Sequence record: PQ850620.1
Direction: 5' to 3' (one strand)
Source of the DNA: Escherichia phage MeretOppenheim_Bas102
Length of the DNA: 39,651 bases
Shown: one piece after another, positions 9,870 through 23,305 of the stretch
Layout of the letters: each line of letters begins with the position of its first letter
Position numbering within the stretch: the first letter of the stretch is position 1
The notes under the pieces: model-generated
Database searches by the model: none
What the model saw: only the letters and a program-made list of their open reading frames with translations
What the model was told of the DNA's origin: nothing
Program-made: the position numbers and the translations under genes

Positions 9870-10892
9870 ATGATGAACATTAAGACTAGCCCATTTAAAG
9901 CCGTGTCTTTCGTAGAGTCCGCCATTAAGAAGGCTCTGGGTAACGCTGGGTATCTTATCGCTGACATCAAGTACGATGGTGTACGTGGGAACATCTGCGT
10001 AGACAATACCGCTAACAGTTGCTGGCTCTCTCGTGTATCTAAAACGATTCCGGCGCTGGAGCACTTAAACGGGTTTGATGTTCGCTGGAAGCGTCTGCTG
10101 AACGATGACCGTTGCTTCTACAAGGATGGCTTCATGCTCGATGGGGAACTCATGGTCAAAGACGTAGACTTCAACACAGGGTCCGGCCTACTGCGTACCA
10201 AATGGACTGACACTAAGAACCAAGAGTTCCACGAAGAGTTATTCGTTGAACCGGTACGTAAGAAAGATAAAGTTCCCTTTAAGCTGCACGCCGGACACCT
10301 TCACGTCAAACTGTACGCTATCCTCCCGCTGCACATCGTGGAGTCTGGAGAAGATTGCGATGTCATGACGTTACTCATGCAGGAACACGTTAAGAACATG
10401 CTGCCTCTGCTACAGGAATACTTCCCTGAAATCGAATGGCAAGCGGCTGAATCTTACGAGGTCTACGATATGGTGGAACTACAGCAACTGTATGAACAGA
10501 AGCGTGAAGAAGGCCATGAGGGTCTCATCGTGAAAGACCCGATGTGCATCTATAAGCGCGGTAAGAAGTCCGGCTGGTGGAAACTTAAGCCTCTTGAGGA
10601 AGCTGACGGCATCATTCAAGGTGTAAACTGGGGAACCGAAGGGCTTGCTAACGAAGGTAAAGTGATCGGCTTTAGTGTCTTGCTAGAAAGCGGGTGTGTA
10701 GTAGATGCTAATAACATCTCACGGGAACTGATGGATGAATTTACAGCTAACGTTAAAGAACATGGCGAGGACTACTACAATGGGTGGGCTTGTCAAATTG
10801 GATTTATGGAGGTAACACCTAATGGAAACCTTAGACATCCGTCCTTCACCTGCTTCCGAGGAACTGAGGACAATCCGAAAGAGAAAGTATAA
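9870..10892 (+). CDS. 1.3: ATP-dependent DNA ligase (gp1.3)
   Basis: 340-aa ORF MMNIKTSPFKAVSFVESAIKKALGNAGYLIADIKYDGVRGN... with adenylation motif KYDG; C-terminal region shorter than T7 ligase as I recall it. Confidence 0.93.
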   Translation: MMNIKTSPFKAVSFVESAIKKALGNAGYLIADIKYDGVRGNICVDNTANSCWLSRVSKTIPALEHLNGFDVRWKRLLNDDRCFYKDGFMLDGELMVKDVDFNTGSGLLRTKWTDTKNQEFHEELFVEPVRKKDKVPFKLHAGHLHVKLYAILPLHIVESGEDCDVMTLLMQEHVKNMLPLLQEYFPEIEWQAAESYEVYDMVELQQLYEQKREEGHEGLIVKDPMCIYKRGKKSGWWKLKPLEEADGIIQGVNWGTEGLANEGKVIGFSVLLESGCVVDANNISRELMDEFTANVKEHGEDYYNGWACQIGFMEVTPNGNLRHPSFTCFRGTEDNPKEKV

Positions 10893-11292
10893 GTATAACC
10901 CTGCGGCTCCTTCGGGAGTCGTTTCTGCCTCTGGTAAACCAATAGGTTACAAGCGGAAAGATGGGTATTGGCTACTTTCTTATGGAGGAAAGCATGTACT
11001 TGCACACAGGGTGGTCTGGATGCTTAACTTCGGTGTCATACCGGAGGGAATGGTGATAGACCACATTAACAGAAACCCTAGCGATAACCGTATAGAGAAT
11101 CTTCGAATAGTAACTCAATCAGCTAACCTAATGAACGTAGGCGTCCGGTCTCATTGTAGGAGTGGAGAGAAGTTTATCTCCCTTGATGTGAGAACCGGAC
11201 GTTTTTCCGTTCGTATCAGGAGAAAATCCTATGGCACATATGGTACTCTCGAAGAGGCTATAGCTGTGCGCGATGCTAATACGACTCACTAA
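10822..11292 (+). CDS. HNH homing endonuclease with C-terminal AP2-like DNA-binding domain, overlapping ligase 3' end
   Basis: 156-aa ORF with HNH motif IDHINRNPSDNRIENLRIVTQSANLMN and AP2-like tail (GRFSVRIRRKSYGTYGTLEEAIAVRDA); own RBS GGAGG at 10808-10812 inside ligase ORF; occupies the position of T7 gene 1.4; true start uncertain. Confidence 0.75.
   Translation: METLDIRPSPASEELRTIRKRKYKYNPAAPSGVVSASGKPIGYKRKDGYWLLSYGGKHVLAHRVVWMLNFGVIPEGMVIDHINRNPSDNRIENLRIVTQSANLMNVGVRSHCRSGEKFISLDVRTGRFSVRIRRKSYGTYGTLEEAIAVRDANTTH
10902..10930 (+). terminator. TE-like early terminator (for host RNAP)
   Basis: hairpin CGGCTCC-TTCG-GGAGTCG followed by TTTCTGCC immediately after the ligase stop; resembles the T7 TE element (GGCTCACCTTCGGGTGGGCCTTTCTGCG) as I recall it. 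Confidence 0.55.
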
Positions 11293-14002: not shown

Positions 14003-15736
<1,734 letters not shown>

Positions 15737-15743
<7 letters not shown>

Positions 15744-15759
15744 ACTCACTAAAGGAGCT
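15737..15759 (+). promoter_or_regulatory. T7 RNAP promoter phi4.3
   Basis: TAATTAGACTCACTAAAGGAGCT; its +2 to +6 GGAG serves as RBS for the inserted HNH gene. Confidence 0.8.
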
Positions 15760-15765
15760 AACCAC

Positions 15766-16191
15766 ATGGACACTAACTTAGCGAGATTTGAAATATTCTT
15801 GAAGATTGATGGTGACTGCTGGTTGTTCACTGGTGGAAGGGCGCACTCCTATGGAGTCTTCTGGATGAACGGTAAGAATCACAAGGCACATAGGGCCGCC
15901 TTCGAACTTTATAACGGGAGGAAACCTAATGGCGTTATACTACATTCTTGTGATAATCCTTTGTGCTGCAATCCCGCTCATCTATCTGAGGGAACTCAGC
16001 TTGATAATATGGTGGACATGGTTAGAAAGGGACGCTCATTGAGAGGTACTAAGAATCCAATGTGCAAGTTTACTGATGCGGATGTTAAGTTCATCCGAGA
16101 GTCTACCATGAAGGTCAAGGATTTAGCTGCTTTATTCGGAGTAACCCGCCAAACAATAACTAAATGGAGGAGGCACCAATGTTCAAACTGA
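15766..16191 (+). CDS. free-standing HNH (His-Me finger) endonuclease inserted between promoter phi4.3 and gene 4.3
   Basis: 142-aa ORF MDTNLARFEIFLKIDGDCWLFTGG... with motif HSCDNPLCCNPAHL and C-terminal HTH-like TRQTITKWRR; paralogous to gp7.7 and to the intron ORF; not present at this locus in T7. Confidence 0.8.
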   Translation: MDTNLARFEIFLKIDGDCWLFTGGRAHSYGVFWMNGKNHKAHRAAFELYNGRKPNGVILHSCDNPLCCNPAHLSEGTQLDNMVDMVRKGRSLRGTKNPMCKFTDADVKFIRESTMKVKDLAALFGVTRQTITKWRRHQCSN

Positions 16192-16753: not shown

Positions 16754-17161
16754 ATGCGTGACCCTAAAGTTATCCAAGCAGAAATCGCTAAGTTGGAAGC
16801 TGAACTGGAGGACGTTAAGTTCCATGAGGCCAAGACCCGCTCCGCTGTTCACATCTTGAAGAACTTAGGCTGGACTTGGACAAGACAGACTGGCTGGGAG
16901 AAACAAGAAGTTAACAAGCTGAGCCACAAGGTGTTCGATAAAGACACTATGACCCACATCAAGGCTGGTGATTGGGTTAAGGTTGCCATGGGAGTTGTTG
17001 TTGGATACGGCTACGTCCGCTCAGTTAGTGGTAAATATGCACAAGTGTCATACATCACAGGCGTCACTCCACGAGGAGCAATCGTTGCCGATAAGACCAA
17101 CATGATTCATACAGTCTTCTTGACAGTTGTCTCGTATGAAGAGATTGTTAAGTCACGATAA
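16754..17161 (+). CDS. 4.7: gp4.7
   Basis: 135-aa ORF MRDPKVIQAEIAKLEAELEDVKFHEAKTRSAVHILKNLGWTWTRQTGW... downstream of phi4.7. Confidence 0.85.
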   Translation: MRDPKVIQAEIAKLEAELEDVKFHEAKTRSAVHILKNLGWTWTRQTGWEKQEVNKLSHKVFDKDTMTHIKAGDWVKVAMGVVVGYGYVRSVSGKYAQVSYITGVTPRGAIVADKTNMIHTVFLTVVSYEEIVKSR

Positions 17162-17179
17162 TCAATAGGAGAAATCAAT

Positions 17180-19138
17180 ATGATCGTTTCTGACATCGAA
17201 GCTAACGCCCTCTTAGAGAGCGTCACTAAGTTCCACTGCGGGGTTATCTACGACTACTCCACCGCTGAGTACGTAAGCTACCGTCCGAGTGACTTCGGTG
17301 CGTATCTGGATGCGCTGGAAGCCGAGGTTGCACGAGGCGGTCTTATTGTGTTCCACAACGGTCACAAGTATGACGTTCCCGCATTGACCAAACTGGCAAA
17401 GCTACAATTGAACCGTGAGTTCCACCTTCCCCGTGAGAACTGTATCGACACCCTTGTGCTGTCACGCTTGATTCACTCTAACCTGAAAGACACCGATATG
17501 GGTCTTCTGCGTTCCGGTAAGTTGCCCGGTAAACGATTTGGGTCTCACGCTTTGGAGGCGTGGGGTTATCGCTTAGGCGAAATGAAGGGTGAATACAAAG
17601 ACGACTTTAAGCGTATGCTTGAAGAGCAGGGTGAAGAGTACGTTGACGGAATGGAGTGGTGGAACTTCAACGAAGAGATGATGGACTATAACGTTCAGGA
17701 CGTTGTGGTCACTAAGGCTCTACTTGAGAAGCTACTCTCTGACAAACACTACTTCCCTCCTGAGATTGACTTTACGGACGTAGGTTACACTACGTTCTGG
17801 TCAGAATCCCTTGAGGCCGTTGACGTTGAACATCGCGCTGCGTGGCTACTCGCTAAGCAAGAGCGAAATGGATTCCCGTTTGACACGAAAGCAATCGAAG
17901 AGTTGTACGTAGAGTTAGCTGCTCGCCGCTCTGAGTTGCTCCGTAAATTGACCGAAACGTTCGGCTCATGGTATCAACCTAAGGGTGGCACCGAAATGTT
18001 CTGCCATCCGCGAACAGGCAAGCCACTGCCTAAATACCCTCGCATTAAGACACCTAAAGTTGGTGGTATCTTTAAGAAGCCTAAGAACAAGGCACAGCGA
18101 GAGGGCCGTGAGCCTTGCGAACTTGATACCCGCGAGTACGTTGCTGGCGCTCCGTATACTCCAGTTGAGCACGTAGTGTTTAACCCTTCGTCTCGTGACC
18201 ACATCCAGAAGAAACTCCAAGAGGCTGGATGGGTCCCCACGAAGTACACCGATAAGGGTGCTCCTGTGGTGGACGATGAGGTACTCGAAGGAGTACGTGT
18301 AGATGACCCCGAGAAGCAAGCTGCTATCGACCTCATTAAAGAGTACTTGATGATTCAGAAGCGAATCGGACAGTCTGCTGAGGGAGACAAGGCATGGCTC
18401 CGTTACGTTGCCGAGGACGGTAAGATTCATGGTTCTGTTAACCCTAATGGAGCAGTTACGGGTCGTGCGACCCATGCGTTCCCCAACCTTGCGCAAATTC
18501 CGGGTGTACGTTCTCCTTATGGGGAGCAGTGCCGTGCTGCTTTTGGCGCTGAGCATCATTTGGATGGGCTAACTGGTAAGCCTTGGGTTCAGGCAGGTAT
18601 CGATGCATCCGGTCTGGAGCTACGCTGCTTAGCCCACTTTATGGCTCGCTTTGATAACGGTGAGTACGCCCACGAGATTCTTAACGGTGACATCCACACT
18701 AAGAACCAGATGGCTGCTGAACTGCCTACCCGTGATAACGCCAAGACGTTCATCTACGGGTTCCTGTATGGTGCTGGCGATGAGAAGATTGGGCAGATTG
18801 TTGGTGCTGGTAAAGAGCGCGGCAAGGAACTCAAGAAGAAATTCCTTGAGAACACCCCAGCTATTGCAGCACTACGCGAGTCTATCCAACAGACACTTGT
18901 CGAGTCCTCTCAGTGGGTAGCAGGTGAGCAACAAGTCAAGTGGAAACGCCGCTGGATTAAAGGTCTGGATGGTCGTAAGGTACACGTTCGTAGTCCTCAC
19001 GCTGCCTTGAATACCCTGCTCCAATCCGCTGGTGCTCTCATCTGCAAACTGTGGATTATCAAGACCGAAGAGATGCTCGTAGAGAAAGGCTTGAAGCACG
19101 GCTGGGATGGGGACTTTGCGTACATGGCATGGGTGCAT
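17180..19138 (+). CDS. 5: DNA polymerase (gp5), exon 1 encoding residues 1-653
   Basis: Family A polymerase with 3'-5' exonuclease domain ([26 protein letters not shown]...); reading frame ends ...[11 protein letters not shown] then runs into 7 aberrant codons and a stop at 19160-19162 unless spliced. Confidence 0.9.
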
Positions 19139-19739
19139 AAACTATTTCATTGTGCACATTAAATCTGGTGAACTCGGTGAAACCCTAATGGGGCAATACC
19201 GAGCCAAGCCATAGGGAGGATATATGAGAGGCAAGAAGTTAATTCTTGAGGCCACTGAGACTGGCTGTATCATCCCTACGTCACACAAACTTAATGCTGA
19301 TGGTTATTTCAGAAAGAAAACCAATGGCGTCTTGGAGATGTATCACAGAACGGTGTGGAAGGAGCATAATGGAGAAATACCTGAAGGCTCCGAGATAGAC
19401 CATAAGTGTCGCAATAGGGCTTGCTGTAACATAGAGCATTTACAGATGCTTGAAGGTACAGCCCACACTGTTAAGACCAATCGTGAACGCTACGCAGACA
19501 GAAAGGAAACAGCTAGAGAATACTGGCTGGAGACTGGATGTACAGGCCTAGCACTCGGTGAGAAGTTTGGTGTGTCGTTCTCTTCCGCTTGTAAGTGGAT
19601 TAGAGAATGGAAGGCGTAGAGACTATCCGAAAGGAGTAGGGCCGAGGGTGAGACTCCCTCGTAACCCGAAGCGCCAGACAGTCAACTCAAAGACTGATGA
19701 TATAGTCCGACACTCCTAGTAATAGGAGAATACAGAAAG
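19139..19739 (+). mobile_element. group I self-splicing intron (inferred) interrupting gene 5 at motif C
   Basis: 601-nt insertion starting after exon U19138 and ending with G19739; GTGCAC (19152-19157) pairs with exon end GTGCAT (19133-19138) giving P1 with U-G wobble at the splice site; TTTCAT (19146-19151) complements exon 2 start ATGAAA (19741-19746) = P10; GACTAT (19621-19626)/ATAGTC (19702-19707) candidate P7; exon frame restored exactly. Confidence 0.8.
19224..19619 (+). CDS. intron-encoded HNH (His-Me finger) homing endonuclease
   Basis: 131-aa ORF MRGKKLILEATETGCIIPTSHKLNADGYFRKK... with motif EIDHKCRNRACCNIEHL, own RBS GGGAGGA 4 nt upstream; lies wholly inside the inferred intron. 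Confidence 0.8.
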   Translation: MRGKKLILEATETGCIIPTSHKLNADGYFRKKTNGVLEMYHRTVWKEHNGEIPEGSEIDHKCRNRACCNIEHLQMLEGTAHTVKTNRERYADRKETAREYWLETGCTGLALGEKFGVSFSSACKWIREWKA

Positions 19740-19895
19740 GATGAAATCCAAGTAGGTTGCCGTACCGAAGAGATTGCTCAGGTTGTCATTGAGACTGCAC
19801 AAGAGGCAATGCGCTGGGTAGGAGACCACTGGAACTTCCGGTGTCTTCTGGATACCGAAGGTAAGATGGGTCCTAATTGGGCCGTATGTCACTGA
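19740..19895 (+). CDS. 5: DNA polymerase (gp5), exon 2 encoding residues 654-704
   Basis: in-frame continuation DEIQVGCRTEEIAQVVIETAQEAMRWVGDHWNFRCLLDTEGKMGPNWAVCH matching the conserved C-terminus of T7 DNA polymerase; spliced product 704 aa. Confidence 0.88.
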   Translation, partial: DEIQVGCRTEEIAQVVIETAQEAMRWVGDHWNFRCLLDTEGKMGPNWAVCH

Positions 19896-19914
19896 TTCTA
19901 TAGGAGAAATTATT

Positions 19915-20211
19915 ATGGCTATGACAAAGAAATTTAAAGTGTCCTTTGATGTTACCCTTAAGCTGGACAGCGAGACCGAAGAACTGATGCGAGAAAAGAT
20001 TCTGGACTTAGCACATCGTGCTGGTGCTGGTAAGGAGGTTGCGCCTATGGACCGAGAGTTGCTCGTTCAGGCTCTGACCAATGGGCCTGATGGCGCTGCT
20101 GCATTCGCTGTACGCCAAGGTCTACGTAAGGCTATCAAAGAGTTGTTCGAAGAGATGAGTGATGCGTCAATGTTCAAAGCGTCTCCTGCAACTGTACGGG
20201 AGGTGTTCTGA
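19915..20211 (+). CDS. 5.5: gp5.5 (H-NS binding protein in T7)
   Basis: 98-aa ORF MAMTKKFKVSFDVTLKLDSETEELMREKILDLAHRAGAGKEV... Confidence 0.88.
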   Translation: MAMTKKFKVSFDVTLKLDSETEELMREKILDLAHRAGAGKEVAPMDRELLVQALTNGPDGAAAFAVRQGLRKAIKELFEEMSDASMFKASPATVREVF

Positions 20212-20420
20212 TGTCTGACTATCTGAAAGTGCTGCAAGCAATCAAAAGTTGCCCTAAGACTTTCCAGTCCAACTATGTACGGAACAATGCGAGCCTTGTA
20301 GCGGAGGCCGCTTCCCGTGGTCACATCTCGTGTCTGACCACAAGTGGACGTAACGGTGGCGCTTGGGAAATTACTGCTTCCGGTACTCGCTTTCTGAAAC
20401 GAATGGGAGGTTGTGTATAA
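20211..20420 (+). CDS. 5.7: gp5.7
   Basis: 69-aa ORF MSDYLKVLQAIKSCPKTFQSNYVRNNASLVAEAASRGHISCLTTSGRNGGAWEITASGTRFLKRMGGCV; TGATG overlap with 5.5. Confidence 0.88.
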   Translation: MSDYLKVLQAIKSCPKTFQSNYVRNNASLVAEAASRGHISCLTTSGRNGGAWEITASGTRFLKRMGGCV

Positions 20421-20578
20421 TGTCTCGTGACCTTGTGACTATTCCACGCGATGTGTGGAACGATATGCAGGGCTACATCGACTCTCTGGAACGTGAGAAC
20501 GATAGCCTTAAGAACCAACTAATGGAAGCTGACGAATACGTAGCGGAACTAGAGGAGAAACTTAATGGCGCTTCTTGA
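20420..20578 (+). CDS. 5.9: gp5.9 (RecBCD inhibitor in T7)
   Basis: 52-aa acidic ORF MSRDLVTIPRDVWNDMQGYIDSLERENDSLKNQLMEADEYVAELEEKLNGAS; TAATG overlap with 5.7. Confidence 0.85.
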   Translation: MSRDLVTIPRDVWNDMQGYIDSLERENDSLKNQLMEADEYVAELEEKLNGAS

Positions 20579-21467
20579 CCTTAAACAATTCTACGAGTTA
20601 CGTGAAGGCTGTGATGACAAGGGTATCCTCGTGATGGACGGCGACTGGCTGGTCTTCCAAGCGATGAGTGCTGCTGAGTTTGATGCATCATGGGAGGAAG
20701 AGATTTGGCACCGCTGCTGCGACCACGCCAAGGCCCGTCAGATTCTTGAGGATTCCATCAAGTCCTACGAGACCCGCAAGAAGGCTTGGGTAGGTGCCCC
20801 GATTGTCCTTGCGTTCACCGATAGCGTTAACTGGCGTAAAGAACTGGTTGACCAGAACTACAAGGCTAACCGTAAGGCCACTAAGAAACCTGTAGGTTAC
20901 TTTGAGTTCCTTGATGCTCTCTTTGAGCGCGAAGAGTTCTATTGCATCCGTGAGCCTATGCTTGAGGGTGATGACGTTATGGGAGTTATTGCTTCCAATC
21001 CGTCTGCCTTCGGTGCTCGTAAGGCCGTAATCATCTCGTGCGATAAGGACTTTAAGACCATCCCTAACTGTGATTTCCTGTGGTGTACCACTGGTAACAT
21101 CCTTACTCAGACAGAAGAGTCCGCTGACTGGTGGCACCTCTTCCAGACAATAAAAGGTGACATCACCGATGGTTACTCAGGGATTGCGGGGTGGGGTGAT
21201 ACCGCCGAGGAGTTCTTGAATAATCCGTTCATTACCGAGCCTAAAACGTCTGTGCTTAAGTCTGGAAAGAACAAAGGCCAAGAGGTTACTAAATGGGTTA
21301 AACGCGACCCTGAGCCTCATGAGACGCTTTGGGACTGCATTAAGTCCATCGGTGCGAAGGCTGGTATGACCGAAGAGGATATTATCAAACAGGGCCAAAT
21401 GGCTCGCATCCTACGGTTCAACGAGTACAACTTTATTGACAAGGAGATTTACCTGTGGAGACCGTAG
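20565..21467 (+). CDS. 6: 5'-3' exonuclease (gp6)
   Basis: 300-aa ORF MALLDLKQFYELREGCDDKGILVMDGDWLVFQAMSAAEF... FEN/PIN-like exonuclease. Confidence 0.95.
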   Translation: MALLDLKQFYELREGCDDKGILVMDGDWLVFQAMSAAEFDASWEEEIWHRCCDHAKARQILEDSIKSYETRKKAWVGAPIVLAFTDSVNWRKELVDQNYKANRKATKKPVGYFEFLDALFEREEFYCIREPMLEGDDVMGVIASNPSAFGARKAVIISCDKDFKTIPNCDFLWCTTGNILTQTEESADWWHLFQTIKGDITDGYSGIAGWGDTAEEFLNNPFITEPKTSVLKSGKNKGQEVTKWVKRDPEPHETLWDCIKSIGAKAGMTEEDIIKQGQMARILRFNEYNFIDKEIYLWRP

Positions 21468-21568
21468 CGTATATTGGCATTGGTCTTTGTGGTCTCGGAG
21501 TGTGCCTCATTTCGTTGGGCCTTTGGGACTTAGCCCGAATAATCAAGTCGTTACACGACACTAAGTGA
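21455..21568 (+). CDS. 6.3: gp6.3 small protein
   Basis: 37-aa ORF from GTG overlapping 13 nt of gene 6 end, (M)ETVAYIGIGLCGLGVCLISLGLWDLARIIKSLHDTK; same size and overlap as I recall for T7 gene 6.3. Confidence 0.5.
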   Translation: METVAYIGIGLCGLGVCLISLGLWDLARIIKSLHDTK

Positions 21569-22898: not shown

Positions 22899-22912
22899 TC
22901 TTGGAGGTTGTC

Positions 22913-23305
22913 ATGGAGAATTGTATTGAGTGGACTAAAGGTACTAATCAGAAAGGTTATGGACGTAAGTGGGTGAACGGTAAACTGGTGTCTGCACATC
23001 GTCACGCTTACGAAGAAGTTCATGGTCCAATCCCACATGGTCTTGTTGTAATGCACCTCTGTGACAATCCTCGATGTTATAATGTGGAGCACTTGACTCT
23101 TGGGACACATGCGGACAATTCAGATGATAAAGTTCGGAAAGGTAGACAAGCCAGAGGAGAAACTCTCAGCAAGAAGCTAACAGCGAGCGACGTTTTGGAA
23201 ATCCGTAGCTTGACACTACCACACACCGAGATAGCCAAGATGTACGGTGTAAGTCAATCAACTATAACTCGCATAATTAGACGAGATACATGGAGGCATA
23301 TCTAA
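22913..23305 (+). CDS. 7.7: gp7.7 HNH (His-Me finger) homing-endonuclease-like protein
   Basis: 130-aa ORF MENCIEWTKGTNQKGYGRKWVNGKLVSAHRHAYEEVHGPIPHGLVVMHLCDNPRCYNVEHL...; canonical T7 position between 7.3 and portal gene. Confidence 0.85.
   Translation: MENCIEWTKGTNQKGYGRKWVNGKLVSAHRHAYEEVHGPIPHGLVVMHLCDNPRCYNVEHLTLGTHADNSDDKVRKGRQARGETLSKKLTASDVLEIRSLTLPHTEIAKMYGVSQSTITRIIRRDTWRHI

Follow-up and report, generated by a model that had tools for sequence, protein, structure and literature searches.

The 19-nt gap after the intron-bearing DNA polymerase gene of a T7-like coliphage is probably an ordinary unoccupied gene 5.3 slot

The DNA analyzed here, referred to throughout as the window, comprises the 39,651 nt of sequence record PQ850620.1 (Escherichia phage MeretOppenheim_Bas102), a T7-like (Teseptimavirus-type) phage genome for which a megablast search with positions 17000-21500 recovered 807 related phage records, the best of them at 92-96% identity. 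Around the end of the DNA polymerase gene, the window holds the following features:

17180..19138, + strand: DNA polymerase (gene 5) exon 1, ending ...TGG GTG CAT (W-V-H); from the ORF list and alignment to phiA1122 gene 5
19139..19739, + strand: group I intron of 601 nt that separates the His codon from the Asp codon in the HDE motif of the polymerase; from Rfam RF00028 and alignment to an intronless relative
19224..19619, + strand: intron ORF, 131 aa, predicted I-TslI-type HNH homing endonuclease; Pfam HNH_3, E 2.4e-15, and PHROG 6254, E 5.9e-47
19740..19895, + strand: DNA polymerase exon 2, 51 codons plus TGA, 156 nt; from alignment to phiA1122 and collinearity with T7 gp5
19896..19914, + strand: spacer between gene 5 exon 2 and gene 5.5, 19 nt, TTCTATAGGAGAAATTATT; the unoccupied gene 5.3 slot
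19915..20211, + strand: gene 5.5, 98 aa, ATG at 19915; full-length match to Pfam PF11247 (Phage_T7_55), E 3.9e-26

Alignment to the intronless gene 5 of phiA1122 breaks at 19137/19138 and resumes at 19740, and removal of 19139-19739 yields a polymerase of 704 aa that, compared without gaps and with the stop counted, is identical to T7 gp5 at 701 of 705 positions and ends in ...GTATGTCAC TGA, the exon 2 stop having been read directly at 19893-19895. The Rfam model for group I introns (Intron_gpI, RF00028) matches 19129-19729 over its full length with E 6.5e-10 and 45 bits, a score that falls below the family's gathering score of 50, as is usual for introns that contain an ORF (here one of 396 nt). 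A U precedes the 5' splice site, and a G is the last intron base. The I-TslI introns in the polymerase gene of coliphages PhiI and W31 measure 601 nt and carry a 131-aa HNH ORF (table in PMC1995217); the window's intron thus shares with them the host gene, the intron size and the ORF length, a likeness drawn from tabulated sizes (Bonocora and Shub, 2004; PMC1995217). An I-TslI-type element is also annotated in the genomes of 13a, K1F and Bas103/104, the K1F intron having been noted in the literature (PMC4925675). Judged by its sequence, the window's element is of a known kind, the mobile group I intron of I-TslI type that inhabits T7-like polymerase genes. All intron-bearing alleles (the window, L003, L004, L006, L008 and L011) read GTG CAT directly before the intron (window 19133-19138), while at the same position nearly all intronless alleles read GTA, GTC, GTT or ATA/ATT followed by CAT or CAC, with L077 (GTG CAC) as the exception; the allele of T3 reads TGG ATA CAC|GAC GAA ATT CAG. 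The GTG CAT signature looks like a P1-pairing requirement that travels with the intron.

The intron ORF shares 86-87% identity with the intron ORFs of 13a and Bas104; it has no exact match in the protein collection searched, and its best relatives are 96-99% identical. Three further ORFs of the HNH_3 type lie elsewhere in the window, at 10822-11292 (after the ligase gene), 15727-16191 (after the primase/helicase gene) and 22901-23305 (before the portal region), so that the window has four HNH genes with the intron ORF counted; the second and third of these ORFs, which share 45% identity, both have a helix-turn-helix at the C terminus.

An earlier note on this DNA had drawn attention to the mere 19 nt that separate the exon 2 stop (19895) from the gene 5.5 start (19915), and direct reading confirms that distance. 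The sole content of the spacer is the Shine-Dalgarno sequence of gene 5.5, AGGAG at 19902-19906, 8 bases before the ATG; the + strand of the spacer holds no ORF and no promoter-like or terminator-like site. Phage promoters and terminators were considered as further occupants and rejected, the only promoter-like match being a weak, overlapping one on the - strand that scored no better than shuffled sequences. No homologue of the T7-type 5.3 gene was detected by tblastn in the whole window (nothing below E = 3.9), a T3-type 5.3 gene (an HNH ORF) is absent from the 19-nt gap between gene 5 and gene 5.5, and remnants of 5.3 elsewhere in the window were ruled out, since the only strong match to T3 gp5.3 is the intron ORF itself. 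By sequence comparison, phiA1122, which has no intron, and 13a and Bas104, which have one, all carry an identical 19-nt spacer.

Two side observations concern the sequence around the spacer. The 9-mer ATAGGAGAA occurs twice, at 19722-19730 (near the 3' end of the intron) and at 19900-19908 (in the spacer), a recurrence that is probably due to chance or to Shine-Dalgarno-like composition. Furthermore, the window's gp5.5 shares 85-86% identity with gp5.5 of phiA1122 and T3 and 49-52% with gp5.5 of T7 and 13a, and the polymerase that flanks it is >99% identical to T7 polymerase; the two allele types of gp5.5 seem to switch at the slot, a pattern suggestive of a recombination boundary at that point.

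In T7 the slot is filled by a gene 5.3 of 118 codons and in T3 by one of 101 codons. Both cassettes start right after the polymerase stop, bring a Shine-Dalgarno sequence of their own and leave that of gene 5.5 intact, the 3' end of the window's spacer being kept downstream of them over 17 nt in T7 and 13 nt in T3. The earlier note had described the T7 gene as HNH-like and about 118 codons long; its length and its position directly after the polymerase stop are as described, but the HNH assignment does not hold. The sole Pfam match of T7 gp5.3 (118 aa) is PF11645 (PDDEXK_5, E 1.1e-10), which makes it a PD-(D/E)XK protein, unlike the HNH intron ORF of the window, and its best solved relative is 2OST (a weak match, E 0.013). 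BLASTP revealed no similarity of T7 gp5.3 to the intron ORF, to T3 gp5.3 or to any HNH protein tested (E above 2.9). The T7 protein is dispensable (PMC9825161); literature that names 'gene 5.3' together with a homing endonuclease was sought and none was found.

The T3 protein is a different matter. The 5.3 gene of T3 and phiYeO3-12 is free-standing, adjoins the polymerase gene, is present or absent between relatives as close as SH1 and SH2 (PMC4925675) and belongs to the same HNH_3 family as the intron ORF; T3 gp5.3 (101 aa) and the intron ORF share 48% identity across 95 aa (93.6 bits), whereas its scores against the other HNH genes of the window are 44 bits (10822-11292), 29 bits (15727-16191) and 39 bits (22901-23305). 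The comparison of the intron ORF with gp5.3 suggested in the earlier note thus reveals similarity to the T3 protein (48%, about 93 bits against 29-44 for other HNH genes) and none to that of T7. At the level of PHROG families, moreover, the intron ORF and T3 gp5.3 are reciprocal second-best matches. The two nevertheless differ in size and place: T3-type 5.3 proteins have 101-111 aa and are encoded in the slot, while the nuclease of the window, which lacks a T3-type gene, has 131 aa and is encoded in the intron. A C-terminal extension of about 35 aa is present in the intron ORF and in all full-length members of the family and is missing from T3-type proteins.

How often the slot is occupied among relatives bears directly on the meaning of its being empty here. 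Neither an intron nor an insert is found in phiA1122, YpP-Y, YpP-R, R, Y, N30, C5, JB01, HZ2R8, ESh1, Yanou and others, for which the matched span is about 601 nt shorter than the query. From IMG/VR, the end of exon 1 retrieved 80 T7-like loci, which were classified by script; 78 of them could be scored. About 60 were intronless with an empty slot (a gap of 15-27 nt) and one combined an intron with an empty slot, so that the empty slot is the majority state (61/78 scorable loci, or ~78%). The occupied slots held a T7-type 5.3 gene in four cases, a T3-type 5.3 gene in three and other small, unrelated ORFs in about ten. The T7-type gene is rare beyond T7, as 57 of the 99 records that match it are T7 strains. 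The slot is also a hotspot, with at least five other unrelated small ORFs (L013, L025, L080 and L081; also L034/L054, L052, L070, L075 and L077), among them a recurrent ORF of about 75 aa that begins MAWRYRIREV...; a Pfam search with these other slot ORFs gave nothing significant, the sole match being a sub-threshold one to PyrI_C (E 0.0084) in the L070 ORF. With ~78% of loci empty, an empty slot in an intron-bearing genome says almost nothing, and the tie drawn in the earlier note between the missing 5.3 gene and the presence of the intron falls away: intronless phiA1122 and many other phages likewise have no 5.3 gene, with an identical spacer.

The nuclease of the window belongs to a large family. 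In a search of 5.8 billion proteins, the window ORF was 54-96% identical, in nearly all cases over its full length, to more than 120 clusters with sizes of 110-187 aa (mostly 130-147 aa); all of them are closer to the window ORF than T3 gp5.3 is. Every family member whose context was checked adjoins a family A polymerase gene. An intronic nuclease at the His|Asp site, as in the window, is present in two phages of other groups, SU7 of the Gordonclarkvirinae and Vp_R1 of the Grimontviridae, as well as in a contig of 189 kb and in six loci of metagenomic phages, four of which are Autographiviridae-like. The intron and nuclease lie at 2905-3515 of L089 (SU7) and 1575-2170 of L090 (Vp_R1), with further cases in L095 and L121-L123; in the public annotation, the split polymerase appears as two separate CDSs in SU7, and exon 2 is unannotated in Vp_R1. 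Free-standing full-length members (135-137 aa), which keep the C-terminal domain, were found in two metagenomic phages (L097, 3001-3408, and L098, 3001-3414), where the nuclease gene lies directly after, or overlaps the end of, an uninterrupted polymerase gene, that is, in the position of T3 gene 5.3. A bootstrapped neighbor-joining tree of the family together with other HNH genes of the T7 group separated the family from those genes at 100% and recovered the T3 clade at 99%; the T3 clade is not sister to the window ORF, and the deep nodes have bootstrap values of 10-54%, for which reason the tree does not give the direction of evolution. T3 gp5.3 shares 47-54% identity with all full-length members, the window ORF included (48%). 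As far as sequence relationships go, that between the window nuclease and T3 gp5.3 is thus one at the family level, with no recent move in the window lineage.

The distribution of the intron and of the various 5.3 genes across genomes was also compared. All 18 distinct intron-bearing Teseptimavirus genomes (18/18) align without gaps over a stretch that begins in the intron and takes in the start of gene 5.5, with the slot empty, and the slots of K1F and BUCT788 (Kayfunavirus) have no insert either. With the intron ORF as the tblastn query, 189 records were matched at 189 places, and with T3 gp5.3 as the query 373 records at 373 places; none of the 189 records matched by the intron ORF carries both an intron-type nuclease and a T3-type 5.3 gene, although the records counted here lack phylogenetic independence. 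A single genus can include both states, as K1F has the intron and pO91 a T3-type 5.3 gene. According to a 2009 study by Bonocora and Shub, the intron nuclease and T3 gp5.3 reportedly both cut the same site of the intronless polymerase gene, and the exclusion of T3-type 5.3 fits with two HNH enzymes that cut one intronless polymerase site, a suggestive agreement. No such exclusion applies to the T7-type gene, as the metagenomic T7-like contig L091 (2918-4382) contains the intron with its HNH ORF as well as a PF11645 PD-(D/E)XK ORF between exon 2 and gene 5.5, from which it follows that the intron and T7-type 5.3 can coexist. In this contig the PF11645 ORF and the exon 2 stop overlap, and the predicted gene product of 210 aa joins the ORF to sequence from the intron and exon 2.

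The scenario put forward in the earlier note, in which a free-standing endonuclease invades an adjacent intron, has a published counterpart: in a model described in reviews, an intron's insertion site is already the target of a free-standing nuclease, which then recombines into that intron, and the reviews credit this model to Zeng et al. (2009) and Bonocora and Shub (2009) (PMC3984707, PMC2988022). This model of endonuclease invasion, or collaborative homing, resembles the present case in that free-standing and intronic nucleases of one family are directed at the same conserved polymerase site; it differs in that it needs an ORF-less intron, and none was found at the window's polymerase site in the phage records, IMG/VR and metagenomes scanned. 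The invasion scenario is said to be both the title and the thesis of the 2009 paper by Bonocora and Shub, which reportedly used PhiI I-TslI and T3 gene 5.3. The general idea thus agrees with the family homology to T3 gp5.3 and with the published model, but nothing indicates a move in the lineage of the window.

The ORF-less intermediate was sought in several collections. Among 50,697 phage records, no ORF-less form of the polymerase intron was present, and the ORF was found in all intron-bearing records (40/40); in a blastn search of phages with the joined halves of the intron, the full matches all span 593-620 nt and hence contain the ORF. A pattern search of IMG/VR (AATACCGARC..AAGGAGTAGG) gave nine matches, which included seven Rfam-confirmed introns in five contigs, none of them in a polymerase gene. 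A junction-anchored pattern (TGCATAAAC..GATATAGTCCGA) applied to IMG/VR and metagenomes gave 12 matches, all of which were chance matches in coding sequence or an unrelated intron. These pattern scans (two of IMG/VR and one of metagenomes) required exact motif matches, and their negative outcome is accordingly not exhaustive. One IMG/VR contig of 5.4 kb (L106, 639-1933) was seen to carry three ORF-less group I introns of 56-88 bits within 1.3 kb, with core motifs related to those of the window's intron; none of the three is in a polymerase gene.

Taken together, these data make it probable that the 19-nt spacer is an ordinary, unoccupied variable slot and that the intron was acquired as a composite unit, with no footprint of a move from slot to intron. 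The spacer would serve gene 5.5 as its ribosome-binding site and have no other function. In some T7-like phages the slot contains a small cassette that brings its own Shine-Dalgarno sequence, be it the T7 type (a PD-(D/E)XK gene), the T3 type (a short HNH gene) or one of the unrelated small ORFs, and in most it contains none. The window phage, for its part, would have taken up an I-TslI-type intron and its nuclease as one composite unit. The intron nuclease and the T3-type gp5.3 are members of one HNH family, and because the intron splits the sequence that both enzymes reportedly cut, we infer that an intron-bearing genome would be no substrate for invasion by a T3-type 5.3 gene. Such an inability to invade would help to keep the slot empty.

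Other histories could leave the same arrangement behind, given that the precise loss of a former 5.3 cassette would produce the same sequence as a slot that was never occupied. The history closest to the published model is one in which an ancestor of the window phage had an ORF-less polymerase intron and an HNH 5.3 gene in the slot, and the gene then entered the intron, about 0.7 kb upstream, with the empty slot as the result. The 48% identity and reciprocal PHROG proximity of the intron ORF and T3 gp5.3 are in line with such a move, as are the free-standing nucleases of L097 and L098, which display the full architecture at the slot position, and the place given by reviews to the model of Bonocora and Shub (2009) (PMC3984707, PMC2988022). 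For this lineage it is nonetheless highly improbable: the ORF-less intron did not turn up in phage records, IMG/VR or metagenome scans, most intronless relatives are empty with an identical spacer, T3 gp5.3 is about as similar to distant intronic members (47-54%) as to the window ORF (48%), which is no nearer to it than they are, the C-terminal 35 aa common to intronic members are missing from the T3 type, and the 5.3 gene of T7 is unrelated to the intron ORF. An old move from slot to intron is still compatible with the absence of intermediates in databases. A former cassette might also have been erased by homing itself, if the recipient carried a 5.3 gene and repair during intron homing copied the flank of a donor with an empty slot. 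The distances involved would permit this, the slot being only 156 nt downstream of the insertion site and co-conversion tracts in phage homing reaching up to 2 kb in T4 (PMC2790892); the GTG CAT signature in the 5' exon of intron alleles demonstrates at least minimal conversion of the flank, and the slot is empty in 18/18 intron-bearing Teseptimavirus genomes. With ~78% of loci empty anyway, however, no loss is needed, and L091, which retains a PD-(D/E)XK gene beside an intron-bearing polymerase gene, illustrates that the slot is not always swept; erasure by co-conversion is accordingly improbable.

The opposite direction of transfer deserves somewhat more weight and is still unlikely. Here the full-length intronic nuclease would be ancestral, the T3-type 5.3 gene an escaped, C-terminally truncated copy, and the slot of the window would never have been occupied. 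Intronic full-length members far outnumber the T3 type and occur in a wider range of phage families, and the T3 type is a single tight clade (99% bootstrap) without the domain common to all others, all of which argues for this direction; the existence of free-standing full-length members (L097 and L098) argues against it, and the order of events is not given by the tree. A broader reading, which we put forward tentatively as a possibility short of a probable one, is that the I-TslI/gp5.3 family has switched more than once between a position downstream of the polymerase gene and the intron at His|Asp, with L097 and L098 as a link to the truncated T3 type. Mutual exclusion, which in that reading arises because both forms target the same polymerase sequence, would then make the empty slot an enforced state and not a neutral one. 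Against all of these, an ordinary empty slot next to a composite intron that arrived as a unit is probably the right description of the window.

For the window itself, the consequences are small: its spacer is a ribosome-binding region of the normal sort, and its intron is a mobile element already known. The finding is an ordinary one that was already known, the scenario of the earlier note had been published before, and the invasion model gains no new evidence from the window. Since the empty slot is the majority state, a missing gene 5.3 is no evidence that a nuclease has been relocated. The analysis does have corrective value in that T7 gp5.3 should not be called HNH-like. Lastly, the survey adds modest detail to the published model of mobile-intron formation: the intron-type nuclease was never seen with a T3-type 5.3 gene in one genome, full-length members of the family also exist in free-standing form, and the family is very large and occupies the same codon boundary of the polymerase gene in unrelated phages.
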